Shown here in pieces: positions 5,994-47,990 of a stretch of DNA of 64,000 nucleotides. The DNA is from an uncultured Rhodospirillaceae bacterium. Lineage in GTDB: Bacteria > Pseudomonadota > Alphaproteobacteria > Rhodospirillales > UBA2165. A program made the translations under genes and the position numbers. Within the stretch, counting starts at the first letter, position 1. Each line of letters starts with the position of its first letter. Location of the stretch: NCBI GenBank assembly GCA_964566055.1, contig CAZMHI010000004.1:20053-84052 (forward strand), given 5' to 3'. The notes beneath the pieces were generated by a model. It was not told where the DNA came from. It saw only the letters and a program-made list of their open reading frames with translations, and ran no database searches.

Positions 5994-6070
5994 AGCACTC
6001 TCCGGAATTAGATGTAGAATCTATTCAATTGATTAAATCCTTACATTTTTTGTGGCTATTGGCAAATTAG

Positions 6071-6156: not shown

Positions 6157-6240
6157 TCAAAAAGCTAACTTCCTTGAATCAGGCTGCTTTTCAAATCAGC
6201 GAAAAATTAAACCACATTAAAAATCTCTAATACGTGAATC

Positions 6241-6256
6241 TGGCACGCTCCTTGCG
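6241..6256 (+). promoter_or_regulatory. Sigma-54 (-24/-12) promoter
   Basis: TGGCAC-GCTCC-TTGC matches the TGGCAC-N5-TTGC consensus exactly. It faces the operon starting at 6532 and is divergent from the sigma-54 activator gene. Confidence 0.7.
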
Positions 6257-6531
6257 ATTACGCTCCTAAGCATAAGCAGGGGGTGCGACCCGAGAATAGA
6301 ATATAAAAATTGAATAAAAAGTTTTGGTTAAAGGGGACACCAGCCGACCGGTGAACTAATGGTTGGTTGTCTCGGATATCTCAGCACTAGCAGGCGCGTT
6401 CGCATCTGCAACTCCTGTTTAAACCGATGGTTATAGAGCCAATAAATTGGCCGCCATGAAACTACTGAACATTCGGCTCTGCCGGATAGAAGTTTAACAG
6501 GAAGTAATTAACCCTAGCTGGGAGATTAAAC

Positions 6532-8364: not shown

Positions 8365-8380
8365 GTAACCAACTGCTTGC

Positions 8381-8403
8381 CCACCCGGTCTTTGGCCGGG
8401 TGG
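8381..8403 (+). other. Intra-operon GC-rich hairpin (no T-tract)
   Basis: CCACCCGG-tctttgg-CCGGGTGG, a perfect 8-bp stem between the ppsA-like stop (8364) and the ppsB-like start (8430). Confidence 0.4.
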
Positions 8404-8429
8404 TGCGGGTGGTTAATTTGGAGGGATCG

Positions 8430-9509: not shown

Positions 9510-9601
9510 GAAATCAATTTGAAGCACCAGAATACCGGCTCAATCCACCAAGGATACCGGGAAATTATCACAATTATCTAGATTCAAAATAGGAGAGAAA
9601 A

Positions 9602-11101: not shown

Positions 11102-11114
11102 TATCCCAGCTAAA

Positions 11115-11152
11115 TAGGGGGGGTGGGTTCAACTCACTCCCCTAATTTTTTT
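11115..11152 (+). terminator. Candidate intrinsic terminator or attenuator inside the operon
   Basis: TAGGGG(gg)GTG...CAC(t)CCCCTA forms a GC-rich stem followed by AATTTTTTT (T-run 11146-11152). It lies between the UbiD stop and the UPF0261 start. Confidence 0.45.
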
Positions 11153-11184
11153 CAAGATTTAAAGTAAATAGGAATTACGGCGTC

Positions 11185-16526: not shown

Positions 16527-17008
16527 TGCGCTGCTCCCTTGAGTTGACCGGCAGCTTGAACGGCCGAGGCGATAATTTTTTCATAGCCGGTACAGCGGCA
16601 GATGTTGCCTGAAATACCTTCACGAATCTCGGCTTTGCCCGCCTCGGGATTGCTTTTAAGGATGGAACTGACGGTCAGGATCATACCGGACGAACAAAAA
16701 CCGCATTGAATGCCGCCGGTATCAACGAAGGATTGTTGCACAACGTCCAAACCTTCGGGTGTGGCCAGTCCCTCGATGGTGGTTATCTCAGCACCTTCGC
16801 AGAGGGCAGCGATAGTTAAACAGCCCCGTACCGGTTCACCATTGATCAAAACCGTGCAGGTGCCGCAGACGCCCTGATCGCAGCCCCGTTTGGCACCGGT
16901 TAAATTAAGTCTTTCGCGCAGCACAGTCAGTAGAGTTTCCTGAGCCGGCGCCGTGACGGTTTCAATCTCGCCATTAATATTGAGATCGTAAGTTAAAGTA
17001 TCACTCAT
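16523..17008 (-). CDS. (2Fe-2S)-binding small subunit of the Mo hydroxylase (set 1)
   Basis: 161 aa with both cluster motifs: CDQGVCGTCTV...C and QCGFCSSGM...CRCTGY. Confidence 0.9.
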   Translation of the reverse strand: MSDTLTYDLNINGEIETVTAPAQETLLTVLRERLNLTGAKRGCDQGVCGTCTVLINGEPVRGCLTIAALCEGAEITTIEGLATPEGLDVVQQSFVDTGGIQCGFCSSGMILTVSSILKSNPEAGKAEIREGISGNICRCTGYEKIIASAVQAAGQLKGAAQ

Positions 17009-24611: not shown

Positions 24612-26936
24612 ATGGGAATGAAACCATCTCCCTTTGGGACCCAAATACCTTATGAGGAAAAAGAACTTAAAGTCGTCGGCACCAACCCGGAAGCTCGGCC
24701 GGATGCTGTCGACAAAGTAACTGGCAAGGCGCGCTACGCCGCCGATATCAACGTGCCAGGGCAATTAATTGGTAAGGTACTGAGAAGCCCGCACGCGCAT
24801 GCTGTCATCAAGTCCATCGATACTTCGGAAGCTGAAAAGCTAAAAGGCGTCAAGGCGGTAATATGCCGTGATGATTTACCGGATATGCCGGTCATGCACG
24901 CGGCAGCCGGTGAGATTATGGTTAATTTCCGTGATGTCACCCGTGCCATAATGGCGCGTGAGAAAGCTTTGTTTGATGGTCATCCCGTGGCTGCTGTGGC
25001 TGCCACCAGTGAATCTGTCGCCAAGGCGGCCCTCAAGCTGATTAAAGTAGAGTATGAAGTGCTGCCCCATGTTATTGATGTGGTTGATGCCATGAAACCG
25101 GATGCGCCACTTCTTAATGAAGAACAATTTACCAAAGGTGTTGAACCGGCGCCCGATAAGCCCTCCAACATCGCTGCACGAATGACCAGCGTACTGGGTG
25201 ACGTTGAAGAAGGATTTGGACAGGCTGATCTGGTCGTCGAACGCGAATTTAATACCAAGGCCGCTCATCAAGGCTATATCGAGCCCCATGCCAGTCTGGC
25301 CATTTATACCGAGGGCGGAAACGCCGAGGTTTGGACCAGTACTCAGGGTCATTTCCTGATCCGCGCCCAGACCGCTAAGATTCTGGAAATGGATGTCTCC
25401 CGCGTTAAGGTAACACCGGCGGAACTCGGTGGCGGTTTCGGCGGTAAAAACATGATTTATCTGGAGCCGCTGGCCATCGTTTTGTCTAAGAAATCGGGAC
25501 GACCGGTGAAAATGGTGATGACGCGGGACGAGGTGTTCCGCGCTTCGGGTCCGACCTCAGGCACAAACATTATCATTAAGATCGGTGTCACCAAGGACGG
25601 CAGGATAACGGCCGCTCAGGCGATTTTAAATTATCAATCGGGTTGTTTCCCGGGTTCTTCGCTGCCGCTCTGCACGCCGACCGCCTTCACCCGCTATGAT
25701 ATCGCCAACGTCCTGGTGATCGGCAATGACGTTGTCTGTAACCGGCCGAAAGTTACAGCCTACCGGGCGCCAGGAGCCCCGATGATCGCCTTTGGCGTTG
25801 AAACGGTGATGGATGAAATTGCTGAAGAGCTGGATATTGATCGTCTCGAAATCCGGCTTATGAATGCCGCCAAAGAAGGCACCCAGACCCATTTCGGGCC
25901 AAAACTGGGACCGATCGGCTTTATTGAAACGCTGGAAGCGGCAAAAGCTCATGACCATCTGAAGGAGAAGCTCGGACCCAATCAGGGCCGCGGTATTGCC
26001 ACCGGTTTCTGGAACACGCTGGGTATGGAAACGTCAGCAACTCTCAACGTCAACCAGGACGGCACAGCCTCCCTGATTTATGGTACGGTTGATGTGGCGG
26101 GCGGTATGCGCGCTGCCTATTCACAGATTGTTGCTGAAGAATTAGGTATTCCGTTTGAGAAAGTGCGGGCGATCCAGAGCGATACCACGTCTTTGGGTTT
26201 CAACTTTACGACAGCCGGCAGCCGGGGCACGGCGGCGGGCGGAATGGCGGCGGTTAAAGCCAGCCGCGATGCCATCACCCGCATGTGCGAGGTGGCTGCC
26301 CGTATCTGGGAAGTGGAGCCGGACCAAGTCGTTTGGGAAAACGGTCATGCCCGCCCGGCCAGTTCCAATGTCGGCGAGTTTGAGCCCTTGTCGCTGGCCG
26401 AGATCGCCATGAAAGCAGGCTTTTTTGGCGGCACCATTGCAGGCCATGCGGAAATTAATGTGACCGGCGGTGGGCCCGGCTTCGGCACTCATCTGGTAGA
26501 CGTCGAAGTTGACCGGGAAACCGGTGCGGTTAAAGTGCTGCGCTATACTATTGTCCAGGATGCCGGCAAGGCCGTGTTCCCGGATTATGTCAAAGCTCAG
26601 TTCCACGGTGCTGCGGTTCAAGGTATCGGCTTGGCTCTGAACGAGGAATATATCTATGACGAAAACGGCGTGATGGCCAATCCGGGATTCTTGGATTACC
26701 GGGTGCCGGTTGCCTCAGACATTCCGCCTATTGAAACCGTGATCGTTGAAGTACCGAATCCGAACCATCCTTACGGCATTAGAGGTGTTGGTGAAGTGCC
26801 GATCATTCCGCCACTTGGGGCGATTTCTAACGCGATTTATGACGCCGTTGGTATTCGGATGCGGGATCATCCGATGTCGCCACCAAAAGTCCTGGCCGCT
26901 CTAGATGAAGCCGAACCGGCGGCAGCGGCGGAGTAA
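24612..26936 (+). CDS. Xanthine-dehydrogenase-family molybdopterin-binding large subunit (set 2)
   Basis: 774 aa. GKARYAADINVPGQLIGKVLRSPHAHA and the GGGFGGK motif. It is tightly spaced with the S and M subunit genes. Confidence 0.9.
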   Translation: MGMKPSPFGTQIPYEEKELKVVGTNPEARPDAVDKVTGKARYAADINVPGQLIGKVLRSPHAHAVIKSIDTSEAEKLKGVKAVICRDDLPDMPVMHAAAGEIMVNFRDVTRAIMAREKALFDGHPVAAVAATSESVAKAALKLIKVEYEVLPHVIDVVDAMKPDAPLLNEEQFTKGVEPAPDKPSNIAARMTSVLGDVEEGFGQADLVVEREFNTKAAHQGYIEPHASLAIYTEGGNAEVWTSTQGHFLIRAQTAKILEMDVSRVKVTPAELGGGFGGKNMIYLEPLAIVLSKKSGRPVKMVMTRDEVFRASGPTSGTNIIIKIGVTKDGRITAAQAILNYQSGCFPGSSLPLCTPTAFTRYDIANVLVIGNDVVCNRPKVTAYRAPGAPMIAFGVETVMDEIAEELDIDRLEIRLMNAAKEGTQTHFGPKLGPIGFIETLEAAKAHDHLKEKLGPNQGRGIATGFWNTLGMETSATLNVNQDGTASLIYGTVDVAGGMRAAYSQIVAEELGIPFEKVRAIQSDTTSLGFNFTTAGSRGTAAGGMAAVKASRDAITRMCEVAARIWEVEPDQVVWENGHARPASSNVGEFEPLSLAEIAMKAGFFGGTIAGHAEINVTGGGPGFGTHLVDVEVDRETGAVKVLRYTIVQDAGKAVFPDYVKAQFHGAAVQGIGLALNEEYIYDENGVMANPGFLDYRVPVASDIPPIETVIVEVPNPNHPYGIRGVGEVPIIPPLGAISNAIYDAVGIRMRDHPMSPPKVLAALDEAEPAAAAE

Positions 26937-26991: not shown

Positions 26992-28017
26992 TTAGGACCA
27001 GACGCCGAAAGTATTGGCGTTACCGGTACCCGCATCAGATCGGTAGCAGGGCACGTAATCCAGCAAATCAAACTTGAGACCTGAGCCTTGAGTTGCGCCC
27101 ATGGCGGCGATCCAGTTTTTAATTTCGGAACTGCCTGACTGATAAGAGTATTCTGGCTCATTGATGATGGCCGCTTCATCACCATCAGCAATGGCTTTAA
27201 GAATGCGGTGATCAAGCTCTTCATCAATGACGAAGTGGCTAAAGCCACCCGAGGCGGCAATGCCGACGCGCTTGTCGCTTTTCCACGACCGGATCGCGTT
27301 GCCGACAGCTTTGCCGAAATTCAAAACCCGTTTGGCGGTAGGCTGGTTAGGCGGGAAGAAGGTGTTGATAAAAATCGGCAGGGTCGCCATGTCTTTGCAT
27401 GCTTCGAAGTCGTTCAATATACGATGATAGAAAAAGCCAAAGGCGTGGCCGATGCCGTTCTCACCCCATTTACCATCTGGCATTTTGCTCGAAACCGAAA
27501 CATCAAACTCATCAACCATCAATGAGGAAACAACATAGTTAGCCAAATCTGGCTCTCCGGCATATTCGAGATCTTGATTTTCCGGCACGTTGGTCCAGGC
27601 GGCAATAGCGATACCGGGTGGCATCGCGTCAAGACGTTCCTGGCTCAATACTTTGTTGAGTACTTTCTCGCCGTTATAAACCGAAAAAGCAGGTGACTGT
27701 TCAGGCAAAAAACATTCCCGCTGGTCGTCCCCGAATATGACCAGAACATCCAGATCGGCAGCGCGAATTTTATCGCCCAACTGATCAAGCACTTTCTGAC
27801 TGGCCTGATGGCGCTCTTCGCGGACTTCTGGCGTGTGTTGAGCGGCGAGATTTTCGCCTTTCCGCAATTCCGCCAATTCTTCATAAGTGTAAACGCCACC
27901 CCGGAAGGGGTGAGCCGGATTGTTACGGTCCGCTTCGGCGCGCTGATCCCAATCTTCCGGTTGGGTGCCCAGCATCGGCGTGTGGGAAGAACCCACTCCA
28001 AATACAATTTCAGCCAT
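26992..28017 (-). CDS. Class III extradiol ring-cleavage dioxygenase (LigB family)
   Basis: 341 aa. It begins MAEIVFGVGSSHTPML and contains IAASGGFSHFVIDEE, both typical LigB-family catalytic-subunit features. Confidence 0.7.
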   Translation of the reverse strand: MAEIVFGVGSSHTPMLGTQPEDWDQRAEADRNNPAHPFRGGVYTYEELAELRKGENLAAQHTPEVREERHQASQKVLDQLGDKIRAADLDVLVIFGDDQRECFLPEQSPAFSVYNGEKVLNKVLSQERLDAMPPGIAIAAWTNVPENQDLEYAGEPDLANYVVSSLMVDEFDVSVSSKMPDGKWGENGIGHAFGFFYHRILNDFEACKDMATLPIFINTFFPPNQPTAKRVLNFGKAVGNAIRSWKSDKRVGIAASGGFSHFVIDEELDHRILKAIADGDEAAIINEPEYSYQSGSSEIKNWIAAMGATQGSGLKFDLLDYVPCYRSDAGTGNANTFGVWS

Positions 28018-28085: not shown

Positions 28086-28826
28086 TCAGTTATTTTCCTT
28101 GTCGGGACGGTAAATTTCAGTGTTACCGCCAAGCGATCTGGTCAATCCTGCCACTGCATGCAAGAGGCCCTGTTTCATCGCCGTCATGATATCTTCCGAC
28201 AGGCGATATTGCGGACCTGAGAGTTGGAGCGCGCCCAATAATTCGCTTCCTGCGCCAAACAGCGGGCAAGCTATGGCGGCAGCATCCGGATATAAAGTGC
28301 CGAAGGAAGTGGCATGGATGTCGCTTCGGATTTGTTTAAAGTTTTCGCCCGCTTCGCCCGAAAAGGCGCGGAGCACTTGTGATGAGGCGCCATTATTGAG
28401 ATCATAACGGTCGCCGATACTGGACCCGGCATCGCGAATACCTTGTGCCGGTTCAACTTTGTGCAGGCAGACGACACTGTCGCCATCGCGCACGGTAAAG
28501 GTCGCACATTCCTTAAATTCCCCGACCAAGGCCTGCATCACCGGATCAATGACATCAACTATCTGAAAGCTTCGCTGGTAGGCCGAGCCGAGATGGAATA
28601 ACGCCGCACCTAACTGGAACCAGCCGTCTTCACGGCGTTTGATAAAACCCTGACGCTCTAGCGAAACACAAAGCCGTAAAATGGTGCTTTTGTTGAGACC
28701 GGTGATTTCAGCGAGATCGGTGAGGCGAAGGGCACTTCGTTCATTGCCGAAGGCCGACAATAGGGAGAGCCCGCGTTCGAGAGCAATAACGCCGCCTTTA
28801 GGTTCTGGTCTTAAATCTCCATCCAC
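28086..28826 (-). CDS. IclR-family transcriptional regulator
   Basis: 246 aa. N-terminal wHTH (RGLSLLSAFGNERSALRLTDLAEITGLNKSTILRLCVSLERQGFI) plus a C-terminal IclR effector domain. Confidence 0.85.
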   Translation of the reverse strand: MDGDLRPEPKGGVIALERGLSLLSAFGNERSALRLTDLAEITGLNKSTILRLCVSLERQGFIKRREDGWFQLGAALFHLGSAYQRSFQIVDVIDPVMQALVGEFKECATFTVRDGDSVVCLHKVEPAQGIRDAGSSIGDRYDLNNGASSQVLRAFSGEAGENFKQIRSDIHATSFGTLYPDAAAIACPLFGAGSELLGALQLSGPQYRLSEDIMTAMKQGLLHAVAGLTRSLGGNTEIYRPDKENN

Positions 28827-28897: not shown

Positions 28898-28914
28898 GTT
28901 TCATGCAATGAAAC
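28898..28914. promoter_or_regulatory. Candidate operator (7-3-7 perfect inverted repeat) in the IclR / Mo-enzyme divergent region
   Basis: GTTTCAT-GCA-ATGAAAC. It lies between the divergent starts at 28826 (-) and 28948 (+). Confidence 0.35.
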
Positions 28915-28947: not shown

Positions 28948-29364
28948 ATGAATAAAATTCTTGGACCGGATGAATCAGCACCGATTTGGTACAGCGCTTC
29001 AAGCAAGCGCGGCGGCAATACTGACAGTTCGGCCGATCTGCCGGCGGATGAGGCAACCGAAAATTCCGCCGATATCACCTTGAATATCGCACTCTTCGGC
29101 TATCTCTCGACCAAAGCCGAAAATGACCGTTTAACGCTGAGCGTTCCCGGGAATGCCAAAGTGCGAGATGTGATCGAAACTATCGGCGAAGCCTGCGGTC
29201 CCGAAATAGCAGCGACTTTCAATAATGACAGTGGTGAATTTATTGAATGCTGCCGGATTTTTGTTGAAGGCGTGCTGCTGGACGATCTTGAGGCGAGGAT
29301 TAGTTCAAAAGGCGGCCCAACTGATATTGAAATAATACTGTTGATGGCGAATGAAGCTGGTTAA
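28948..29364 (+). CDS. Hypothetical protein with a MoaD/ThiS-like beta-grasp C-terminal region that ends -EAG rather than -GG
   Basis: 138 aa. Residues ~50-138 (ITLNIALFGYL...LTLSVPGNAKVRDVIETI...RIFVEG...IEIILLMANEAG) follow the MoaD layout. The N-terminal ~50 aa are low-complexity and the start is uncertain. Confidence 0.3.
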   Translation: MNKILGPDESAPIWYSASSKRGGNTDSSADLPADEATENSADITLNIALFGYLSTKAENDRLTLSVPGNAKVRDVIETIGEACGPEIAATFNNDSGEFIECCRIFVEGVLLDDLEARISSKGGPTDIEIILLMANEAG

Positions 29365-29382
29365 TTAAGGTAGGAAAAAACA

Positions 29383-31998
29383 ATGGATGATGTCCCTCAA
29401 AATTTAACTGATTCAGCCGACACGACTGACAAAGTAGATGACAAATGGATCTCCTCATCCTGCAGTCTTTGCTATTCGTCCTGTTCGATCAAAGCTCACC
29501 GGGTAAACGGTACGGTCGTTAAAATCGAAGGCAACCCGGAAAGTGAAGTTGGCAAGGGCCGGCTTTGCGGCAAAGGGGTCAGCGGCATTATGTCCCATTA
29601 TGATCCCAACCGTCTCAACAAACCGATGAAGCGCACCAACCCTGAAAAAGGCAAAGGCATCGACCCAATGTGGGAAGAGATTTCCTGGGATGAGGCGCTC
29701 GATACCGTGGCTGAAAAACTAAAAGCACTGCGTGAAGATGACCCGCGTAAATTATTTATCATGCGGACGACCACGGTAATGACCCAGCACATTCCGCCCT
29801 TTGCCTTTATGTCAGCCTTTGGCACCCCGAATGCCTCGGCGGCCGGTGGCGGACTGCATTGCGGTAATGGCGCTCATTTAATCAGCGGCATCATGCATTC
29901 GTCCTGGTCGATTGTGCCGGATTTTCAATATTGCAATTACGCGGTTTATTTCGGCGCTTCGAAAGGCCACGCCGCCGGTCACGCGTCTTGCTCCAATATG
30001 ACGATGGCGGCGGATGCCAGGGCGCGCGGTATGAAAATGGTGGTGGTTGATCCCTTCGCCAATCAGGCAGGAGCTAATTCCACCGAATGGGTGCCGATCC
30101 GGGTTGGCACCGATGCCGGCTTGGCGCTCTCAATGGCCAATGTTCTGGTCAATGAGCTGGAAATGTATGACGTCGCTTATCTCAAAGCCAAAACCAATAT
30201 GCCGTATTTGATTGGTGATGATACCCGCTACATTCGCGATCCCGAAACCAATAAGCCCATGGTCTGGGACAGCGAAACCGGTCAGGCGTGCACCTTTGAT
30301 GCGACAGATTCAGCTGACATGGCGCTTGAGGGCACCTATATGGTCGACGGCAAGCAATGCCGCCCGGGCTTCGTGCTGATGAAGGAGCATCTGAAAACCT
30401 ATACGGTTGAGCGTGGTGAGGAAATCACCACCATACCGGCTGAAAACATCCGCCGGATCGCTACTGAGTTTGCTGAAGAAGCGCGCATCGGCAGCACCAT
30501 CGTCATTGATGGCGTGACGGTGCCGTACCGCCCGGTGGCGGCGATCGCTTTCCGCGGCTCGCAAGGCCACAAGAACTCAACCTACAATATGCTGTCGGTT
30601 GATCTGCTGAACCATTTGGTCGGCGCTGCCGATGTTGCTGGTGGTTGTCTCGGCTTTAACCCGGCCTGCGATGGTTATCCTGAAACCGGACGCTTGAAAT
30701 ATATTCCTCATCCTGATCCGGATGGCTTGATGATTACCGGCTCCTGGATGGGCCCGCACGGACCGTATCCGATCAATGATCCAGCCCCACCGGAAAGGGT
30801 TGGTTTACAGAATTTATTCCCAATGGCGATGGGCTCAGTATTCCAGGCTTCCACCGATCAGGAGGAAATGTGGGAAAAATTTGATTTCGATTACCGCCCT
30901 GAGTTTTTGCTCAATCTCGGCGCCAATCAGATCATGAGTGTCGGCAATAGTGAAGCCACCGAAGCCTCCTTGAAAAAATTCAAGTTCATTGTTTCTTTTG
31001 ATATTTTCGCCACTGAAACCACCGAATTTGCTGATATCGTATTCCCCGATTGCGGCTATCTTGAAACCACCGATTCCCGCTCGAATTTTCCGTTTATATT
31101 CAGTTTGCCTGCTGGTTTGGGTGATTGGTGCTGGCCGATCCGCCAGGAAGTTGTTGAGCCCGAAGGCGAGCGACGACTATTTGCTGATGTCCTGCAAGAA
31201 CTGGCAGACCGGATTGGCATTACGCCCGATTTAAACGCCGCATACAACGCCTGGTTCGAGCTTGAAGGCGAGAACCGGCTGAAACCAGACCGCAAATATA
31301 CCTTTGCCGAGATCGGCGATCACGATTTGAAGGATAAGTTCGGTCCCGATAAAGGCCTCGAATACTTTAAGGAACATGGTTTGGTCAAATGGCCGAAAAA
31401 ACCCAATGAGGTGTATTGGCGCGCCTTTACCGATGTCAGGGTGCCGCTCTATTGGGAGTGGATGACTGATACCTGGGAGAAAACAGTGGCAATCGCCGGG
31501 CCTAAAGGCTTGGATATTCCGCAAGAATATTACAGCCCTTTGCCGGATTGGCTGCCCTGTCCGTCCCATGAATGTAACCATGAAGATTTTGATTTCTATG
31601 CTTTCTATTACCGTGACATTGTTCACACCAATAGTCTGACGATGGAAAACGCCTGGCTGGACGAGGCTGCTCAGCTCGATCCTTATTCTTATAACATTGC
31701 GATCAATGCCGGAGTGGGTCGCGAAAAAGGATTGCAGTCAGGCGACCTTATCTCGGTGGAGAACGAGCACGGCCACAAGGTCGAGGGCCGCGCACGGCTG
31801 ACCGAAACCATCCACCCCGAAGGCTTAGGCATTGGCGCCTGTGCCGGTCATTGGGCGCGCCGTATGCCGACCGCCAAAGGCAAGGGCGTTTTCTTCAATG
31901 ATCTGGTTGAGCTCGATTGGGAACATTCAAGCCCGAACAATCTAACCGTTGATCTTTGCGCCAAAGTAAAGGTCACCAAATTGGAGGCAGCACAATGA
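29383..31998 (+). CDS. Mo/W-bis(pyranopterin guanine dinucleotide) oxidoreductase catalytic subunit (DMSO-reductase superfamily), with no Tat signal
   Basis: 871 aa. N-terminal FS0 motif C-x2-C-x3-C...C (CSLCYSSC...GRLCGKG). The first 26 aa (MDDVPQNLTDSADTTDKVDDKWISSS) have no RR motif and no hydrophobic segment. Confidence 0.85.
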   Translation: MDDVPQNLTDSADTTDKVDDKWISSSCSLCYSSCSIKAHRVNGTVVKIEGNPESEVGKGRLCGKGVSGIMSHYDPNRLNKPMKRTNPEKGKGIDPMWEEISWDEALDTVAEKLKALREDDPRKLFIMRTTTVMTQHIPPFAFMSAFGTPNASAAGGGLHCGNGAHLISGIMHSSWSIVPDFQYCNYAVYFGASKGHAAGHASCSNMTMAADARARGMKMVVVDPFANQAGANSTEWVPIRVGTDAGLALSMANVLVNELEMYDVAYLKAKTNMPYLIGDDTRYIRDPETNKPMVWDSETGQACTFDATDSADMALEGTYMVDGKQCRPGFVLMKEHLKTYTVERGEEITTIPAENIRRIATEFAEEARIGSTIVIDGVTVPYRPVAAIAFRGSQGHKNSTYNMLSVDLLNHLVGAADVAGGCLGFNPACDGYPETGRLKYIPHPDPDGLMITGSWMGPHGPYPINDPAPPERVGLQNLFPMAMGSVFQASTDQEEMWEKFDFDYRPEFLLNLGANQIMSVGNSEATEASLKKFKFIVSFDIFATETTEFADIVFPDCGYLETTDSRSNFPFIFSLPAGLGDWCWPIRQEVVEPEGERRLFADVLQELADRIGITPDLNAAYNAWFELEGENRLKPDRKYTFAEIGDHDLKDKFGPDKGLEYFKEHGLVKWPKKPNEVYWRAFTDVRVPLYWEWMTDTWEKTVAIAGPKGLDIPQEYYSPLPDWLPCPSHECNHEDFDFYAFYYRDIVHTNSLTMENAWLDEAAQLDPYSYNIAINAGVGREKGLQSGDLISVENEHGHKVEGRARLTETIHPEGLGIGACAGHWARRMPTAKGKGVFFNDLVELDWEHSSPNNLTVDLCAKVKVTKLEAAQ

Positions 31999-32603
31999 GA
32001 TGGGGTATGGTGATCGACTTGAAGCGCTGCATCGGCTGCTATGGCTGTCAGCTTTCCTGCAAGGCTGAAAATGGCACGCCCCCCGGCGTCTTTTTCGCCC
32101 GCGTCCACAAACAGGAAGAAGGCCAGTATCCGACGGCGCAGACGACCTTCCTGCCTGTTTTGTGTAATCACTGTGATGATCCGCCTTGTGTCGATGTCTG
32201 CCCAACCGGCGCCAGTTTCGTTTGGGAAGATGACGGTATTGTCGATATCGATGCTGATAAATGCGTTGGCTGCCGGTCCTGCATGATGGCCTGCCCGTAT
32301 TCGCAGCGCTTCCTCAATGATGAGCCCCAGAATTATTACGGCGATCAGGGAGCGACCCCTTACGAAGAAGCGCGCGTTCAGCAGCATCAAGAGGGCGTGG
32401 TTATGAAATGTAACTTCTGCCGCGACCGGGTGCGTAACGGTCAGAATCCTGCCTGCGTTGAAAACTGTCCGACTATTGCCCGCTATTTTGGTGATCTCGA
32501 TGATCCGAAGAGCGAAGTGTCGCGTTTGATCCGAGAGCGTAGCGGCTTCCCGCTGCACCCGGAAAAAGGCACCAATCCAAACGTTTACTATTTGCCGGCT
32601 TGA
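31995..32603 (+). CDS. 4Fe-4S ferredoxin-type electron-transfer subunit (DmsB/PsrB-like)
   Basis: I prefer ATG 31995, an ATGA overlap with the alpha-subunit stop. MRWGMVIDLKRCIGCYGCQLSCK...CNHCDDPPCVDVCP...CVGCRSCMMACP...CNFCRDR...PACVENCP shows four Cys clusters. Confidence 0.85.
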   Translation: MRWGMVIDLKRCIGCYGCQLSCKAENGTPPGVFFARVHKQEEGQYPTAQTTFLPVLCNHCDDPPCVDVCPTGASFVWEDDGIVDIDADKCVGCRSCMMACPYSQRFLNDEPQNYYGDQGATPYEEARVQQHQEGVVMKCNFCRDRVRNGQNPACVENCPTIARYFGDLDDPKSEVSRLIRERSGFPLHPEKGTNPNVYYLPA

Positions 32604-32619
32604 TTGGGGAGGGGAAATA

Positions 32620-33573
32620 ATGTCAGCCACGAATTCAGGACGCTATCAACAGCTCATCAAGGATTATCAAACCGAATACCGGCCTCAACGGGAATGGTCA
32701 GAGGGCCGCGGCTTTTATCTCATCCTTGGCCACTTTCTGGTCGGCGTTGCCGCCGGCGCCTGGCTGTTTGGTCTGTTCTTCGACGATTTGATTTCCCTGC
32801 TGGCCGGTTTTGTCCTGGCCGGTCTCGGCGGTTTGGCGCATTTGGTTAATTTGGCGCGGCCGGAGCGGTTTATCTTGATGATGCTGAGAACGGCAACGTC
32901 CTGGGTGTCGCGTGGATTTTGGGGGCTGACGTTGTTTTTGATCGGCAGCGTGATCTATCTGCCATCCCTAATATTTACTGACACTTTCTGGCACAGTGAT
33001 TCGCCTTTCGCCAATCTAGGCATTGCGCTTTCGATTGCCGGCTCCATCGTCATGATGGCCTATATGGGATTTGTCTATACGGCGTCGAAGGCTATCGCCT
33101 TTTGGAACTCAACCCTGCATCCTGTGCTCTATATCGCTTATGCCTTGCGCGGAGGGGCAGCAGCCTATCTGTTGTCACTCGCCTTTCAGGGCGAAGCTGT
33201 CAGTGGCGGCTCCGATATCCTGATATTCTGGGTTGCTGTCACGGCGACCGTCATTGTGCTCTGGATATTTGAAATCCAAGGTGCGCTCACCAGCGGTGAA
33301 GAAGCAGCGGTACGCTCGGTTCACGATATCCTGGCGGGCCGTCTGGCGCTCTATTTCTATGTTGGCATTCTACTGGTTGGTCTGGTTGTGCCGGTGTTCC
33401 TGATGGCTGGCATTATCGCGCCTCTCTCACCAACTCTCTTTGCCATTATCGGATTATCGTCGGTTGCTGGTGATTTCTTTATGAAATTCTCCTCGATCAA
33501 AGCAGGCGTTTTCAGTCCGGTCCGGCTCTATAGCGGCAATAACAGAAGAGCAACACGTCGCCGAAAAATCTAA
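32620..33573 (+). CDS. NrfD/DmsC/PsrC-like integral membrane (quinone-interacting) subunit
   Basis: 317 aa. Multiple long hydrophobic segments are visible throughout. Its position follows the Mo and FeS subunit genes. Confidence 0.65.
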   Translation: MSATNSGRYQQLIKDYQTEYRPQREWSEGRGFYLILGHFLVGVAAGAWLFGLFFDDLISLLAGFVLAGLGGLAHLVNLARPERFILMMLRTATSWVSRGFWGLTLFLIGSVIYLPSLIFTDTFWHSDSPFANLGIALSIAGSIVMMAYMGFVYTASKAIAFWNSTLHPVLYIAYALRGGAAAYLLSLAFQGEAVSGGSDILIFWVAVTATVIVLWIFEIQGALTSGEEAAVRSVHDILAGRLALYFYVGILLVGLVVPVFLMAGIIAPLSPTLFAIIGLSSVAGDFFMKFSSIKAGVFSPVRLYSGNNRRATRRRKI

Positions 33574-33604: not shown

Positions 33605-34582
33605 TTGATTATCGATTGGCAACATCACGCATCACCCAAAGTGTTTTTTGACCGCCGCGGCGGCAAAGCAGGTGCGCCGGTGATCCAGAACGGCAAGGTC
33701 AATCTGCGGCTGCGTCCCGAGGTCTACCAAATCGATATGCAGCTCGACTATATGGATGCTGCCGGTATTGATATCTCGGTGCTGTCGGCGACCCTGGAAA
33801 ATCATGATGATTGCTCAATTACCAGTGAATTCTACGCCGAAGTTGTGAGCGATCATCCGGACCGCTTTGTCTGTCTGGCGCCTTGTTTACCGCTGCACGG
33901 ACCGGAAGCGCTTACCGAGCTTAAACGCGCCATCACTGATTTGGGCCTGAAAGGCGTGGTGATCTCACCGCAGAATGGCGGCGAGGCGATGGATTCCAAA
34001 AAAATGTGGCCGTTCTATGAATTGGTGCAAAAGCTCGATGTGCCGATCTTCGTGCATATATCCGGCGTGCCGGTTGGCTATGACGCGCTCGAAGCCGACT
34101 GGAACATCAATGTAACTATGACCCGGGAGTTCGATGTCGCCTCCAACGCTATCCGTCTGGTCAATGGCGGTGTGCTGACCGAGTTTCCTGAACTGAATTT
34201 CGTTATCGCTCATTTCGGCGGCGGCGTCTCCTCGATTTACGAACGGGTCGAGCGATACGTCGATTCCTGGGGAGATCGTTTCTGGGAAGACCAAGGCGGC
34301 AAAGCACCTTTCGCCCAACCTTATAAACAAAGTTTCCGGGAGGCCTTTGACCGGCTCTATTTTGATATGGCGGGATTTGAAGGTGGCATGAACGCCGTCA
34401 ATTGTGCGCTTACGACCATTCGCCCGGACCGCCTGCTCTTCGCGACCGATTATCCCTACAATTTTTCCGACGATCCGGAAATGGTGAAGCACTATGTCGA
34501 GAACATCCGTGCGCTAGATCTGGCGCCGGAAATTATCGATGACATTCTGGGCGGCACAGCGGCCCAGCTTTTGAAACTCTAA
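33605..34582 (+). CDS. Amidohydrolase-2 (ACMSD/LigW-like) family protein, second copy
   Basis: 325 aa with a TTG start after GGGAG. IDWQHH... at the N-terminus and FATDYPYN near the C-terminus are amidohydrolase_2 decarboxylase-type features. Confidence 0.7.
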   Translation: MIIDWQHHASPKVFFDRRGGKAGAPVIQNGKVNLRLRPEVYQIDMQLDYMDAAGIDISVLSATLENHDDCSITSEFYAEVVSDHPDRFVCLAPCLPLHGPEALTELKRAITDLGLKGVVISPQNGGEAMDSKKMWPFYELVQKLDVPIFVHISGVPVGYDALEADWNINVTMTREFDVASNAIRLVNGGVLTEFPELNFVIAHFGGGVSSIYERVERYVDSWGDRFWEDQGGKAPFAQPYKQSFREAFDRLYFDMAGFEGGMNAVNCALTTIRPDRLLFATDYPYNFSDDPEMVKHYVENIRALDLAPEIIDDILGGTAAQLLKL

Positions 34583-34598: not shown

Positions 34599-36134
34599 AT
34601 GACTGAAGCAACCAAAACAGCGCCTGTCGATGCCGATATGGCCCTTGGCGCCATGACTGGTGAACGCTATATCAAAAGTCTGCAGGATGACCGCGAAGTC
34701 TTTATCGATGGCGAGCAAGTTAAAGATGTTACCAAGCACCCGGCCTTTACCGGCATCATCAATGAAATGGCCCGTCTCTATGATTTGCAGAACAGCGATG
34801 AATATAAAGACGAAATGACCTTCGTTGATCCTGCGTCGGGGGTACGCTCTTCGGTTTCCTGGATGGTGCCGAAATCAGCCGATGATCTGAAACGCAAACG
34901 CCGCAACAGCCAAATTTGGAACCAGCAAACCTGGGGGCAGCTTGGCCGCTCTCATGATATTCTGGCGCCCTATATTATCGGTGCGCTCAACCGCAAGGAT
35001 CTCTTCAGCGAGGTTAAGCATGACAAATGTGATTTTGGTGAGAATCTCGAGAATTATTATAACTACTGCATGAAGAACGATCTGTTTCTGACCCATGCGC
35101 TGGGTGATCCGCAAGTGGATCGCAGCGCCACGGCGCAGAATGAGAAGCAAAAAACCCAGGAAGATTTGGAAGTCGCTTTGCATGTGGTCGAGGAAACCGC
35201 CGACGGCGTGATTGTGACCGGCGGTAAGCAGCTCTCAACGGCAGCCACCCATGCCAATGAATGCTACATTTCATTATCAGCGACGTTTGCCCGCCGCAAT
35301 GATCCAAACTGCGTGCTGGCCTTCTCCATTCCGCAAAACACACCCGGCCTGAAAGCGCTGGCCCGTGAGCCGAATTCCCGCTGGTTCGGGTCTTGGGGAC
35401 ATCCTTTGCAAAATCTTGATGAGCAGGATTGTATGCTGTTCTTTGATAACGTTTTGGTGCCTTGGGACCGCCTGTTTATGCTCTATGATCCCTCGCCGAT
35501 GGCGAAAATTCTGGGTGCCGGCGGCGGCAGTGTGAACTTTAATTTCTTGGGCTGGGCCAATTTGTGCCGGGCTGAAGAACGCATGAAGCTGATCACGGCG
35601 GTAGCCACCATGGTGGCCGAATCTATCGGTGTTATCCAATACCGCGAAGTTGCCTCCAAGCTTGGTGAGCTGGTGACCTATTGTCACGTTTGGGATCACG
35701 CCATGGAAGGCGTCGAGCATGAAGCGATTGAATCGCCGAGCGGCCAGTGGTCCCTGGGCCATGCCCGTGGCCTGCATATTTGGTTTGCTCAGGTTTCCGG
35801 GCGGATGCTTGAAATCCTGCGCGAGATTTGCGGCGCCGGCATCACCATGCAGCCGAGCGAAAAAGACCTCGCCAATCCGGACATCCGCCAATATCTCGAT
35901 AAATATATGCGCGGTAAGGATTGCGATGTTGAGTATAAGTCACGGCTCTTCCGTCTGGCCCACGATCTGGCAGCCTCTTCCTTCGGCCTGCGCCAGGATA
36001 TTTACGAATACTGGCACGGTGGCGATCCGAGCCGCAACCGCATCAATCTGCTGAACGGCTATGATCAAAGCGAGATCATGGACCGTGTGAAAGACTTGAT
36101 CAGCCGGCCCCTGCCGCATGGTGTTGAGAAGTAG
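34599..36134 (+). CDS. HpaB-family flavin-dependent aromatic monooxygenase, oxygenase component
   Basis: 511 aa. GERYIKSLQDDREVFIDGEQVKDVTKHPAF...ARLYDLQ and THALGDPQVDRS parallel the Thermus HpaB blocks (GAEYIEALK..., THALTNPQVNR). No reductase component is adjacent. Confidence 0.8.
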   Translation: MTEATKTAPVDADMALGAMTGERYIKSLQDDREVFIDGEQVKDVTKHPAFTGIINEMARLYDLQNSDEYKDEMTFVDPASGVRSSVSWMVPKSADDLKRKRRNSQIWNQQTWGQLGRSHDILAPYIIGALNRKDLFSEVKHDKCDFGENLENYYNYCMKNDLFLTHALGDPQVDRSATAQNEKQKTQEDLEVALHVVEETADGVIVTGGKQLSTAATHANECYISLSATFARRNDPNCVLAFSIPQNTPGLKALAREPNSRWFGSWGHPLQNLDEQDCMLFFDNVLVPWDRLFMLYDPSPMAKILGAGGGSVNFNFLGWANLCRAEERMKLITAVATMVAESIGVIQYREVASKLGELVTYCHVWDHAMEGVEHEAIESPSGQWSLGHARGLHIWFAQVSGRMLEILREICGAGITMQPSEKDLANPDIRQYLDKYMRGKDCDVEYKSRLFRLAHDLAASSFGLRQDIYEYWHGGDPSRNRINLLNGYDQSEIMDRVKDLISRPLPHGVEK

Positions 36135-45028: not shown

Positions 45029-45699
45029 AAATGTCACGAATTATCCCTCGTCTGATTCTGCTTACCGGTATTGTGGCAGCGATTATCTGGGTTGGCCGGA
45101 ATTTTGATCAGCTGGATTCTGCAGCGCTTGATGTCTGGCTTTCGGAGTTTGGGATTTGGGCGCCGCTCGCTTTTATAGTTCTTTATATAATTGCCACAGT
45201 TATTTTTATGCCGGGGTCACTGTTTGCGCTCGCCGCCGGGGCTTTGTTCGGCCCAATTTGGGGCTCCCTGTTAAGTTTATTGGGCGCGACCTTGGGGGCC
45301 GGCATGGCGTTTGTGATCGCCCGCTACTTTGCCGGTGATTGGGTCGCCCGAAAAACCGGCGGTGGGTTAAAAAAATTTATCGAGGGCGTTGAGGCTGAAA
45401 ACTGGCGCTTCGTTGCCTTTGTGCGCCTGGTGCCGTTATTCCCGTTTAATTTAACCAATTATGCGCTGGGCCTTACGCGCATAAAATTAGTGCCTTATGT
45501 TATCACCTCTTTCATTTGCATGGCACCCGGTGGCGTGGCCTACACTTGGCTAGGTCATGCAGGACGCGAAGCCTTTGACGGCAATATTGCTGCTATTCAA
45601 TGGGGCATATTGGCTCTGGCCTTACTCGCCGCAATTGCCTTTTTGCCGCGCCTCGTGCGCCGCCTGAAAGAAAATGGCGCGCCTCAACTTTCTGCTTAG
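45025..45699 (+). CDS. TVP38/TMEM64 (DedA/VTT-domain) family membrane protein
   Basis: 224 aa and multi-TM. The motifs FMPGSLFALAAGALFG and VRLVPLFPFNLTNYALGLT are typical of the VTT domain. It overlaps the upstream gene via ATGA. Confidence 0.75.
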   Translation: MKMSRIIPRLILLTGIVAAIIWVGRNFDQLDSAALDVWLSEFGIWAPLAFIVLYIIATVIFMPGSLFALAAGALFGPIWGSLLSLLGATLGAGMAFVIARYFAGDWVARKTGGGLKKFIEGVEAENWRFVAFVRLVPLFPFNLTNYALGLTRIKLVPYVITSFICMAPGGVAYTWLGHAGREAFDGNIAAIQWGILALALLAAIAFLPRLVRRLKENGAPQLSA

Positions 45700-47990
45700 T
45701 TCTGCTTTGTTGCTTGTATCACCTGCCAGATAGACTCGGCTGTTGCAGGAGTATCGATATGATGGATACCTAACGGTGAGAGCGCATCAACCAAAGCATT
45801 GACGATGGTGGCAACGGCGCAGCCGGTGCCGATCTCACCCGCACCCTTGACGCCGAGCGGATTAACTTCGGTCGAGCTTGGATTGTCATAAGTTTCAATA
45901 AAGCACATATCTTTGGCTTTGGGCATGGCGTAATCCATGTAGGAGCCGGATAACAGTTGGCCGGTCTCAGCATCGTAGGCGATATTTTCGGATAAGACCT
46001 GCCCCAGCGCCTGGACAATGCCGCCTTTGACCTGGCCTTCAACTTGAGTAGGGTTAATCGACTTGCCGACATCGGTAACGGCAATATAGCGTTTAATCTC
46101 AACGCCACCGGTATCCGGGTCAACCTCAAGCTCGCAGATATGACAACCCGAAGGGAAGGTCGGCGCGCTGGTTTTGTGAGTGCCGACAACCGTCAGGTCG
46201 TTTTCTTTGGCCAATTCGGCGAAGGTGATGGCGCGATCCGTACCGGCGACAGTAAAGGTTTGATCAGCAAAATCGATATCGGCTTCAGCTGCTTCCAAAT
46301 GTTCGGCGGCGAGCTCTTTGCCTTTCTCAATGATCATACCGGTGGTTACAAATACAGCTGAGCCGCCTATACCTGATACTTTTGAGCCACCTGCACCAAA
46401 GCCTTTTTCCAACGTGCTGGTGTCACCTTCGACGATCTGTACTTGATCTGGGCTCATCCCCAATTTCTCACAGATGATTTGGGTGTACATGGTGGCGTGG
46501 CCCTGGCCTTGATCCGTGGAGCCTGCGTAGAGCAGGGCGTTGCCATCCGCATCAATGCCGAGTTTGGCAAATTCCTGGCCGGGTGGCGCTGAGCTCTCTA
46601 CATTGTTGCCCATGCCGAGGCCGAGCATTTTTCCCCGCTCTTGAGCTTCCTTGCGCCGCGCCGCGAAGCCGTCGTATTCAGCTTTAGTCAATGCCACTTC
46701 TTGGTTTTTCGGGAAATGTCCGGAATCATAAGGCGGGCCAAGGGCCGGTTTAAACGGCATCATGTCTTCGGCAATGAGATTGCGGCGGCGAAGTTCTGCC
46801 GGGTCAATGTCCAATTCCCGGGCCGCGATATCAATGATGCGCTCGATGACGTAGCCTGCATCGGGCCGGCCCGAGCCGCGATAGGGCGACATTGGGTTTG
46901 AATTCGAAAACACTGCTGTGGCGTGATAGTGAATGGCCGGTGTTTTATAGGCGCCGGCGAGGCCGCTGGTCGACATAATGATCGGGAAGGTCGACGTGGT
47001 TGAATAATAAGCGCCCGTGTTGGCTATCGAATGAACTCTAAGCGCCAGAAAATTAAAATTGTCATCCAAGGCGAGCTCTGCCTCGATGATTTTATCACGG
47101 GCATGATTGTCGCTGACAAAGGCTTCCGAGCGGTCGCTGATCCATTTTACCGGCCGCCCATGTTTTTGTGAGGCCCAAACGGCGAGCGGCGTTTCGGAAT
47201 ACATTGAGCCCTTCATACCGAAGCTGCCACCGATATCGCCGGTAACCACCCGGAAATTCTCTTCTGGCTGATTGAAAAATTTATTGGCGAGAATCCCACG
47301 AGAACCAAAGGCAGCTTGAGTTGGCAAATGAACGGTGGTGAATTTGGTTTCAGGATTATAGTCGGCGACGACTCCCCTTGTTTCAATTGTGCTTGCGGTT
47401 AAGCGGTTGATGCGAATTTGATGTTTGACGATATGAGTCGCTGCAGCAAAGGCTTGGTCGGTGGCCTCGATATCCCCCTGATGATACTCGTAGGCAATAT
47501 TATTAGGACAGTCATCCCGGACCAGCGGCGCACCATCAGATATTGCTTGGGCCGGGCCAACCACAGCTGGCAGTATTTTATACTCAACATTTATTAACTC
47601 GGCGGCATCCTGGGCCTGTGTCTTGCTTTCAGCGACAATGAAGGCGACGCCATCGCCGACATAGCGGACCCGCTCGGCGGCCAGGGGATAATGTTTGGCT
47701 GGATAAATTTTCTCCGGATCAAAGGTCGGCAGGGTAGCCAAATTATGCGGCATTTCGCCGAGCCCAGCAGCCAGATAATCAGCGCCGGTGAACACATCGA
47801 CCACACCCGGTGCAGCTTTGGCAGTGCCAACATCAATTGTTACTATCTCAGCATGCGCGTGCGGTGAGCGCAGCATGTGGCCATAGAGCTGATTGGGCAG
47901 GATATTATCATCAATAAACTGGCCATTACCCTTGAGTAAGCGCGGGTCTTCGGTCCGGACTACGGGTGAATTGGGGCTGAATTTATTCAT
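45696..47990 (-). CDS. Xanthine-dehydrogenase-family molybdopterin-binding large subunit (CoxL-like, orphan: no adjacent FeS or FAD subunit genes)
   Basis: 764 aa. VVRTEDPRLLKGNGQFIDD...LYGHMLRSPHAHAEI, a GGSFG motif, and YRGSGRP in place of the CODH active-site loop. Confidence 0.85.
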   Translation of the reverse strand: MNKFSPNSPVVRTEDPRLLKGNGQFIDDNILPNQLYGHMLRSPHAHAEIVTIDVGTAKAAPGVVDVFTGADYLAAGLGEMPHNLATLPTFDPEKIYPAKHYPLAAERVRYVGDGVAFIVAESKTQAQDAAELINVEYKILPAVVGPAQAISDGAPLVRDDCPNNIAYEYHQGDIEATDQAFAAATHIVKHQIRINRLTASTIETRGVVADYNPETKFTTVHLPTQAAFGSRGILANKFFNQPEENFRVVTGDIGGSFGMKGSMYSETPLAVWASQKHGRPVKWISDRSEAFVSDNHARDKIIEAELALDDNFNFLALRVHSIANTGAYYSTTSTFPIIMSTSGLAGAYKTPAIHYHATAVFSNSNPMSPYRGSGRPDAGYVIERIIDIAARELDIDPAELRRRNLIAEDMMPFKPALGPPYDSGHFPKNQEVALTKAEYDGFAARRKEAQERGKMLGLGMGNNVESSAPPGQEFAKLGIDADGNALLYAGSTDQGQGHATMYTQIICEKLGMSPDQVQIVEGDTSTLEKGFGAGGSKVSGIGGSAVFVTTGMIIEKGKELAAEHLEAAEADIDFADQTFTVAGTDRAITFAELAKENDLTVVGTHKTSAPTFPSGCHICELEVDPDTGGVEIKRYIAVTDVGKSINPTQVEGQVKGGIVQALGQVLSENIAYDAETGQLLSGSYMDYAMPKAKDMCFIETYDNPSSTEVNPLGVKGAGEIGTGCAVATIVNALVDALSPLGIHHIDTPATAESIWQVIQATKQN

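Follow-up and report, generated by a model that had tools for sequence, protein, structure and literature searches.

A predicted cytoplasm-facing, NrfD-anchored molybdoenzyme encoded with a MoaD-like protein in an uncultured Rhodospirillaceae bacterium

Results

A four-gene module

We analysed a window of 64,000 nucleotides (nt) from an uncultured Rhodospirillaceae bacterium (GenBank assembly GCA_964566055.1, contig CAZMHI010000004.1, positions 20,053 to 84,052 of the forward strand). Open reading frame (ORF) listing and translation show four co-directional, tightly coupled genes at window positions 28948-33573, all on the forward strand. The first (28948..29364) encodes a small protein of 138 amino acids (aa) with a MoaD/ThiS/SAMP1 fold; about 40 residues at its N-terminus form an extension predicted to be disordered, and its C-terminus is -NEAG. 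The second (29383..31998) encodes alpha, the 871-aa catalytic subunit of a molybdenum- or tungsten-bis(pyranopterin guanine dinucleotide) (Mo/W-bisPGD) enzyme, which carries an FS0 [4Fe-4S] motif and a predicted metal ligand, Cys160, and lacks a twin-arginine translocation (Tat) signal. The third (31995..32603) encodes beta, a 202-aa four-cluster ferredoxin of the PsrB/DmsB/DsrO type, and the fourth (32620..33573) encodes gamma, a 317-aa polytopic anchor of the NrfD/PsrC type with 8 predicted transmembrane (TM) helices and an N-in/C-in topology. A preliminary description of this DNA had named these four ORFs, and all of them are present. Its further statement that the iron-sulfur subunit starts in an ATGA overlap is also correct: the beta ATG (31995-31997) overlaps the alpha TGA (31996-31998) and so couples the two genes translationally, with GGAGG upstream, and the gamma start is likewise preceded by GGAGG.

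The small ORF and alpha share one reading frame. Between them (window 29362-29385) come TAA, two sense codons, TAG and three further codons, the bases preceding the alpha ATG being GCT GGT TAA TTA AGG TAG GAA AAA ACA ATG. A fused small-alpha ORF was found in none of the loci examined, in contrast to the fusion of aldehyde oxidoreductase (AOR) and MoaD reported for Azoarcus. Scans for promoters and terminators gave signal no higher than background.

Alpha subunit and its missing export signal

Alpha is a member of the Mo/W-bisPGD (dimethyl sulfoxide reductase) superfamily. It matches PF00384 (E value 4e-25) and PF04879 (E 1e-12), and the FS0 motif ascribed to it earlier reads C27-x2-C30-x3-C34...C62; PF01568, which is called in many homologues, reaches 24.2 bits in the window alpha, just below its cut-off of 26.8. 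The best named models in NCBIfam are PhsA, DmsA/YnfE, ArrA and QrcB, all far under their cut-offs, and the nearest solved structures are PsrA/PhsA (2VPW; E 1e-35 with the single sequence and 1e-45 with the family profile), ArrA and acetylene hydratase. Most of the 2VPW score (94.0 of 158.8 bits) comes from the first ~270 residues, which comprise the FS0 domain and the start of the Mo domain. The preliminary description had proposed that the Mo ligand be identified, and the profile alignment picks out Cys160 (GGGLHCGNG), which pairs with the Cys at position 173 of 2vpw_A, a residue that Jormakka et al. (2008) reportedly identified as the molybdenum ligand of PsrA. Cys160 is therefore the predicted protein ligand to Mo. 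All 94 full-length family alphas in the loci that we fetched for comparison (L numbers below) keep FS0, and 85 of the 94 keep GGG[LMIQ]HCGNG.

The N-terminus of alpha, MDDVPQNLTDSADTTDKVDDKWISSSCSLCYSSC, is acidic, and inspection of the translation reveals neither RR nor a hydrophobic stretch. Because two in-frame stops lie directly upstream, within 21 nt before the alpha ATG at 29383, a cryptic Tat leader or an upstream alternative start is excluded, and the earlier reading of alpha as Tat-less is borne out.

Beta, gamma and the predicted orientation

Beta contains 16 Cys in four ferredoxin-type motifs, is called as Fer4_11 and shows similarity to DsrO, ArrB, TtrB and NrfC in the Pfam and NCBIfam searches. 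Gamma matches Pfam NrfD (E 9e-13) and finds no match in PDB by sequence. The subunits thus follow one another as had been described, a four-cluster iron-sulfur protein and then an NrfD-like polytopic protein, and alpha, beta and gamma together make up a complex iron-sulfur molybdoenzyme set.

We assessed gamma topology by simple hydropathy and a positive-inside count on 40 homologues, a crude method that under-calls helices (6 found in the window gamma versus 8 expected). In the ten homologues predicted with 8 TM helices, Lys and Arg number 200 on the side of the termini versus 11 on the opposite side. For the window gamma the count is 20 versus 2; its N-terminus holds 5 Lys/Arg and its C-terminal tail is KFSSIKAGVFSPVRLYSGNNRRATRRRKI. 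Because of this bias toward the terminal side, the termini and large loops of gamma are predicted to be cytoplasmic. Canonical 8-TM NrfD proteins have periplasmic termini, as DmsC fusion studies are reported to have shown. In the NrfD review of Calisto and Pereira, SoeC alone is expected to be inverted, and SoeABC is the sole complex given as facing the N-side (PMC8076601). Since the anchor shows this charge bias and the alpha-beta dimer is Tat-less, we predict that the dimer faces the cytoplasm on an inverted NrfD anchor, and the cytoplasm-facing arrangement proposed at first sight of the sequence gains support as a prediction.

The small protein

A profile built from 30 relatives of the small protein reaches proteins of PF02597 (ThiS/MoaD) with E values from 1e-19 to 1e-14, and the Aromatoleum copy carries the NCBI name "MoaD/ThiS family protein." AlphaFold, run with a 30-row alignment, gave a confident beta-grasp fold for residues 41-134 (predicted local distance difference test, pLDDT, ~90) and left residues 1-40 disordered. 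The top Foldseek matches of this model are SAMP1 structures (3po0/4hro; template modelling (TM) score 0.83-0.89, root-mean-square deviation 1.4-1.6 Å) and MoaD (6jbz/6jc0), with TM scores of 0.81-0.85 for MoaD; mycobacterial MoaD, Urm1 and human MoaD are among the top matches. The MoaD/ThiS-like beta-grasp layout that the preliminary description had suggested is thus supported by family profile, model and structural search.

The preliminary description had also allowed that the small ORF might not be translated. Against orthologues with 96% alpha identity, the small gene has a dN/dS of 0.14-0.15 (alpha, 0.03), and it is under purifying selection; together with its homologues upstream of alpha and its confident fold, this marks it as a real gene. 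The N-terminus MNKILGPD(E/K)SAPIWY is kept in orthologues. As a separate observation, the disordered extension of ~40 residues (window 28948-29070) contains a conserved Trp motif, APIWY here and VRWDAVV in betaproteobacterial clades, and has no counterpart in the plain 99-aa ThiS-type proteins of a sister family described below.

The window protein ends in ...LLMANEAG. Its family has three invariant positions, G51, G84 and the terminal G138, and E136 is invariant in one alignment and nearly so in another. Among unique sequences the tails are EGG in 38, EAG in 9 and AAG in 1, and the Ala variants are confined to the orthologue clade of the window, in which alpha identity is at least 76% (L004-L011, L018). 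The -AG ending is accordingly a fixed, conserved clade character that keeps the terminal Gly, not a decayed tail. Since orthologues share the variant and the last Gly is still in place, the earlier idea that an -EAG tail may not be activatable is not compelling.

Linkage of the small gene to the module

Of the 88 alphas for which upstream sequence was available, 49 have a homologue of the small gene immediately before them in the same orientation, as found by tblastn. For the 71 alpha genes with both flanks, small, beta and gamma are all present at 31, and beta and gamma without the small gene at 2, so that the small gene occurs in 31 of 33 complete operons. Another 9 of the 71 have the small gene only; in two of these (L011, L018), beta and gamma are convergent on the opposite strand.

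The sister family, in which alpha is ~843 aa long and 37-41% identical, has the order small (99-aa ThiS-type), alpha, gamma, beta, and its 99-aa gene was called independently by the gene caller of the source. Because the linkage is kept in a family of ~40% identity, it is old. The sister modules lie at L082:8001-12357, L083:541-4897, L045:10707-15057 and L046:173-4525; the one in L082 is near a gene with FmdE/MobB domains and NMT1-type binding proteins.

Neighbour statistics were obtained by ORF clustering in 78 loci, mostly contigs of metagenome-assembled genomes (MAGs), many of them truncated. No ThiF/MoeB, MoaE or JAMM gene is found among the neighbour clusters present in at least 4 of these 78 loci. 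The role of a small protein of this kind beside a Mo enzyme, which had been called unexplained, does have a precedent in tungsten AOR operons: MoaD genes were found strictly adjacent to tungsten AOR genes by Iyer, Burroughs and Aravind in 2006 (PMC1779556), and AorD and AorE of Aromatoleum are absent from purified AOR and regarded as maturation factors (PMC6365974). For the enzyme class studied here, no description of a linked beta-grasp accessory was found in the literature searched.

Family size, paralogy and distribution of Tat signals

A word-indexed search returned 4548 alpha homologues. The best 120 of these 4548 all have at least 64% identity over essentially their full length and come mainly from Rhodospirillales, other Alphaproteobacteria and Burkholderiales MAGs. 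One homologue of 68% identity (P0031) is named "related to phenylacetyl-CoA:acceptor oxidoreductase"; the names of the others, and of 20 distant cluster representatives, are generic, and none is SoeA. An exhaustive search of representatives at 50% identity found 8709 proteins at E ≤ 1e-3, 612 of them at E ≤ 1e-30. The preliminary description had held that this layout is known from a few systems only; judged by these 8709 representatives and by the many paralogues in some genomes, it is not rare in sequence space. No homologue above 30% identity was found in the plasmid collection.

Representatives with ~38% identity or more all start 12-35 residues before FS0 and have no RR, and many of those at 30-38% identity bear RRxFLK signals. 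In a neighbour-joining tree of 110 representatives, the window alpha falls within an all-Tat-less clade of 17 (the regular expression for Tat misses some signals). Because Tat-positive and Tat-negative lineages interleave outside this 17-member clade, Tat loss is not one clean event.

Counted over the best 80 of 233 confirmed matches, the fetched loci hold 17 alpha genes in the mesopelagic Rhodospirillaceae MAG SRP308112_co1_303, 6 in Arabian11_MAG_19 and 4-6 each in several groundwater Betaproteobacteria. Aromatoleum toluclasticum has two copies within 25 kb, and copies are also present in Sterolibacterium MAGs. SRP308112_co1_303 also shows tandem arrays of 2-4 full-length alphas (L015:60-10592, L017:7291-12550, L029:7177-12613, L014:9-4609), which comprise four consecutive alphas in L015, three in L017 and two in L029. 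All of them retain FS0 and the motif with the Cys ligand. No small, beta or gamma gene lies within or beside these arrays, and the array alphas may either share one beta-gamma pair in trans or be soluble enzymes.

Neighbouring genes and a candidate operator

The genes flanking the module are those that the preliminary description had named, and Pfam confirms all four families. Downstream on the forward strand lie an Amidohydro_2 enzyme (33605..34582), which is co-located with the module in orthologues, and the oxygenase component of an HpaB-family flavin-dependent phenol hydroxylase (34599..36134); upstream on the reverse strand lie a divergently transcribed IclR-family regulator (28086..28826) and a LigB-type class III extradiol ring-cleavage dioxygenase (26992..28017). 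A flavin adenine dinucleotide (FAD)-dependent monooxygenase of the PRK06126 type is among the flanking genes as well. The Amidohydro_2 protein is nearest to gamma-resorcylate decarboxylase, 2,3-dihydroxybenzoate decarboxylase and LigW, and is likely a non-oxidative decarboxylase of the hydroxybenzoate type acting in the same pathway. The HpaB-like protein is nearest to 4-hydroxyphenylacetate 3-hydroxylases, and LigB to protocatechuate 4,5-dioxygenase and gallate dioxygenase.

The aromatic gene context is likewise upheld: orthologous loci with 83-96% alpha identity keep HpaB, LigB, Amidohydro_2 and IclR despite a rearranged gene order. HpaB stays with the module in L004, L007 and L008, LigB in L004, L005, L007 and L008, and IclR adjoins it in L004, L005, L007 and L009. 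The divergent intergenic region between the IclR gene and the operon holds a perfect palindrome, GTTTCAT-N3-ATGAAAC (28898..28914, without strand), some 34-38 nt upstream of the small ORF. The same sequence recurs exactly in orthologous loci down to 86% alpha identity (L004:9480-9496, L005:8538-8554, L006:764-780), and it is a likely operator, at which the IclR regulator would bind.

In the 78 loci as a whole, the recurrent neighbours are TctC (19 loci), Amidohydro_2 (16), UbiD (14), IclR (13), ATP-binding cassette (ABC) ATPases (13), thiamine pyrophosphate (TPP) enzymes (11), coenzyme A (CoA) ligases (10), the tripartite ATP-independent periplasmic (TRAP) transporter components DctM (9), DctP (7) and DctQ (4), enoyl-CoA hydratase (8), aldehyde dehydrogenase (7), MarR (7) and glutathione S-transferase (6). 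A repeated order is that of alpha-beta-gamma, a carboxylate-binding protein, a TPP enzyme and an aldehyde dehydrogenase (L030, L021, L037, L001, L061). The five TPP enzymes tested all belong to NF006203 (PRK08327), an uncharacterised family, with 605-680 bits; benzoylformate decarboxylase is their next-best model, and Xsc reaches only ~95 bits versus a cut-off of 676. Such recurrence hints that decarboxylation of a 2-oxoacid, downstream of the Mo enzyme, is a conserved step. The TPP genes lie at L030:7066-8808, L001:18417-20153, L021:15141-16883, L037:9238-10950 and L061:14615-16372, often with TctC or a TRAP transporter nearby.

Discussion

Proposed function of the module

Based on these results, we propose that the window operon encodes a cytoplasm-facing, water-dependent, quinone-reducing hydroxylase or dehydrogenase of an aromatic carboxylate, of the PadBCD type, together with a dedicated MoaD-like maturation factor; we give this reading a probability of roughly 55%. 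The complex would be mounted on the cytoplasmic face of the inner membrane, where alpha, with its Cys-ligated Mo-bisPGD, would oxidise an intracellular aromatic, probably carboxylated, intermediate, most likely by putting a water-derived oxygen atom into an activated C-H bond. Electrons would travel by way of FS0 and then the four [4Fe-4S] clusters in beta to gamma, the NrfD-type subunit, where quinone would be reduced close to the cytoplasmic side. The product would then be handed to the Amidohydro_2 decarboxylase, the HpaB phenol hydroxylase and the LigB dioxygenase, all under IclR control. The small protein would be an accessory dedicated to modules of this kind and most likely serves as a private maturation factor, whose conserved -E(G/A)G tail would act as a sulfur carrier or as an active-site-docking chaperone. 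We infer the hydroxylase or dehydrogenase activity and the substrate class from gene context, and we likewise infer the catalytic direction, the quinone acceptor and the role of the small protein.

The repeated arrangement with TPP enzymes would be in keeping with a PadBCD-like reaction in which a carboxymethyl side chain undergoes alpha-oxidation to a 2-oxoacid that is then decarboxylated, with oxidation of the aldehyde as the last step. In the window cluster, the presence of an ortho-hydroxybenzoate-type decarboxylase suggests hydroxylation and then decarboxylation instead. Such an order has a parallel in the 3,5-dihydroxybenzoate pathway, in which decarboxylation follows hydroxylation. Pyrogallol transhydroxylase and the hydroxylases of resorcinol and 3,5-dihydroxybenzoate are Mo-bisPGD enzymes, either cytoplasmic or associated with the membrane, and need no O2 to hydroxylate their aromatic substrates. 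A place for the window alpha in the transhydroxylase/resorcinol hydroxylase lineage was ruled out: transhydroxylase chains are not among its PDB matches at E ≤ 1e-3, or at E ≤ 1e-10 with the profile. The transhydroxylase large subunit is not known to contain FS0. Three other candidates among the "four-component" hydroxylases that degrade pyridine carboxylates were also set aside, namely PicB, which is a Rieske oxygenase; HpdA, which is an enzyme of the xanthine dehydrogenase type; and the dip hydroxylase, which is independent of the Mo cofactor.

Several observations weigh against the proposal. On the enzyme side, the AlphaFold model of alpha, built from a 14-sequence alignment, has a mean pLDDT of only 41.7, and the putative relatedness of alpha to PadB is drawn from one transferred name and from architecture. 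No CoA ligase or padEFGHI-like gene lies next to the window operon, so the chemistry may differ from phenylacetyl-CoA alpha-oxidation, and the direction of electron flow cannot be deduced from sequence. On the side of the small protein, the window copy by itself has no match in Pfam, with the ThiS model failing, and scores 18.6 bits (E 0.002) on the SAMP1 model, for which the cut-off is 60; it ends in Ala-Gly, where the MoaD/ThiS family is characterised by a C-terminal Gly-Gly. Finally, 29 of the 71 alphas with both flanks (~41%) are orphans with no small, beta or gamma gene nearby, often in tandem arrays, so that the accessory is either supplied in trans or not required for the maturation of alpha itself.

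Comparison with known systems

The predicted layout is PadBCD/SoeABC-style, and the enzymes would form a large, uncharacterised family related to PadBCD. PadBCD (EC 1.17.5.1, phenylacetyl-CoA:acceptor oxidoreductase of Thauera aromatica and Aromatoleum) acts on an intracellular aromatic substrate. As Rhee and Fuchs are said to have found in 1999, it has subunits of 93/27/26 kDa, is membrane-bound, ubiquinone-linked and oxygen-stable, and takes its oxygen atom from water. The window module resembles it in combining a Mo subunit, a ferredoxin-type subunit and a membrane subunit, with predicted sizes that come close to those reported masses. It differs in that its operon adjoins no gene for a phenylacetate-CoA ligase of the PadJ type or for the phenylglyoxylate oxidoreductase PadEFGHI and has HpaB, LigB and Amidohydro_2 beside it instead, in that its host pathway is aerobic, and in that a MoaD-like gene precedes alpha; PadBCD was compared here by architecture and by the one transferred name. 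The pathway role of PadBCD has been described (PMC5109826).

Like the window complex, PsrABC/PhsABC (2VPW) has FS0, Mo-bisPGD with a Cys ligand, a beta subunit with four clusters and a gamma of the NrfD type with 8 TM helices. However, Psr is a Tat-exported, periplasm-facing, quinol-oxidising reductase, and because the window alpha carries no Tat signal, its enzyme is not of the periplasmic Psr/Phs/Ttr type.

For the small protein, the closest parallel is the MoaD linked to tungsten AOR, where again a MoaD-fold gene adjoins the gene for a pterin-cofactor enzyme, apart from the general cofactor operon (PMC1779556, PMC6365974). Unlike that system, the partner here is a Mo-bisPGD enzyme of the dimethyl sulfoxide reductase family, MoeB and MoaE are not recurrent nearby, and the small protein has its ~40-aa N-terminal extension and an -E(G/A)G tail.

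Alternative explanations

A private maturation factor is the role that we favour for the small protein and consider most likely. The chief rival is a structural or docking role, given that every paralogue comes with a co-evolving copy of its own, whose presence follows that of beta-gamma modules. In the rival's strict form, the small protein would either belong to the complex as a stoichiometric fourth subunit or serve as a plug of the active site or an adaptor for docking, and it would work by contact only, without adenylation or thiocarboxylate chemistry. We hold this to be a tentative but serious alternative. Every paralogous module carries a separate copy that co-evolves with it, and the tails of the copies differ by clade (LLTAAEGG, LVLAYEGG, LLKGFEGG, LLMANEAG); the small gene goes with modules that contain beta and gamma rather than with alpha alone; and no E1-like, MoaE or JAMM gene recurs nearby. 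The tolerance of a penultimate Gly-to-Ala change across a whole clade, and a conserved Trp-motif extension predicted to be disordered, as would be expected of a segment that folds on binding, point the same way. However, the invariant terminal Gly and the MoaD/SAMP1 fold are hallmarks of activatable carriers. PadBCD is reportedly purified with three subunits only. A further point against a stoichiometric subunit is that the MoaD-like AorD and AorE are absent from purified AOR (PMC6365974).

A bolder combination of these ideas is more doubtful in our judgement: the small protein could represent a new class of private maturation factor or fourth subunit for Tat-less, cytoplasm-facing molybdoenzymes, whose tail enters alpha, where it would, for example, deliver a sulfido ligand or cap the metal site, and the enzymes would be paralogue-rich O2-independent hydroxylases.

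It is also conceivable that the small protein is an extra MoaD paralogue that contributes to general molybdopterin synthesis, together with the housekeeping MoaE and MoeB, upon induction of the operon. The profile link to PF02597, the structural matches to MoaD, the NCBI name of the Aromatoleum copy and the AOR-MoaD precedent are in line with this. Nevertheless, several copies per genome, one for each module, would be needless for a general carrier; the N-terminal extension and the Glu at position -2 set the protein apart from typical MoaD; the tail of the window copy is -AG; and orphan alphas occur without a copy. A housekeeping MoaD is unlikely.

Turning from the small protein to the catalytic reaction, the enzyme might run in reverse, as a quinol-dependent cytoplasmic reductase that carries out reductive dehydroxylation of an aromatic or acts on an N-oxide, S-oxide or oxyanion. 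PsrA/PhsA, ArrA, DmsA and TtrA, the nearest relatives of alpha that have a solved structure or a name, are reductases, and the direction is not fixed by sequence alone. On the other side, the host pathway contains the O2-dependent HpaB, LigB and FAD monooxygenase, which suggests that its quinone pool has a high potential and would favour oxidation of the substrate. PadBCD and SoeABC, the enzymes known to combine the lack of a Tat signal with an NrfD anchor, are dehydrogenases, and the downstream decarboxylase, hydroxylase and ring-cleavage genes suit an oxidative funnel. On balance we think a reductase rather improbable.

Least probable by far is a SoeABC-type cytoplasmic sulfite:quinone oxidoreductase that detoxifies sulfite from organosulfonates: although a binding protein of the NMT1/THI5 type with an ABC transporter of the nitrate/sulfonate/taurine kind lies 6 kb downstream, no sulfur-metabolism gene is among the recurrent neighbours in the 78 loci, the linked TPP enzymes fall far short of the Xsc model, up to 17 alpha paralogues in one MAG are ill-suited to one inorganic substrate, the Joint Genome Institute (JGI) names of the homologues are generic and not SoeA, and we take SoeA to be ~100 aa longer than the window alpha. 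What the two systems share is the three-subunit, Tat-less, NrfD-anchored architecture, and in both the proposed place of the alpha-beta dimer is the N-side of an anchor that is inverted; SoeABC is the only such complex in the NrfD review (PMC8076601). They differ in that SoeABC has an inorganic substrate and a sulfur context, whereas the window family has aromatic and carboxylate neighbours, massive paralogy and a MoaD-like partner.

Significance and further features of the window

Molybdoenzymes that face the cytoplasm on an NrfD anchor count as textbook rarities, the known examples being PadBCD and SoeABC; in this study the same predicted layout belongs to a very large family, encoded almost always beside carboxylate transporters, decarboxylases, ring-cleavage genes or genes for 2-oxoacid processing. 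If its members are water-dependent hydroxylases or dehydrogenases, they would provide aerobes with an overlooked, oxygenase-free route for activating aromatic acids, with a bearing on the turnover of refractory dissolved organic matter. If they indeed form a family of O2-independent hydroxylases, aerobic bacteria of the deep ocean and of groundwater could use them to open up recalcitrant aromatic or alicyclic carboxylic acids. The linked MoaD-like protein would offer a tractable handle on the maturation of Tat-less bisPGD enzymes, and its linkage extends the AOR-MoaD observation to the dimethyl sulfoxide reductase superfamily.

Beyond the module, the window is a dense island of aromatic or heteroaromatic catabolism (4206-12447, 14199-17847, 23264-26936, 45696-47990, 50288-51658). 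The island holds three separate large subunits of molybdenum hydroxylases of the xanthine dehydrogenase family, a phosphoenolpyruvate (PEP)-utilising enzyme beside a UbiD-family carboxylase in a layout like that of phenylphosphate synthase/carboxylase, a second UbiD, a sigma-54 activator of the XylR type and a UPF0261 protein. At 20585-21928, an ORF of the endonuclease/exonuclease/phosphatase family is immediately preceded by one that resembles aegerolysin (Pfam E 1.7e-5). The GC content there is 0.44-0.45 over 18-22 kb, versus 50-54% elsewhere in the window, and this region may be a horizontally acquired insert.

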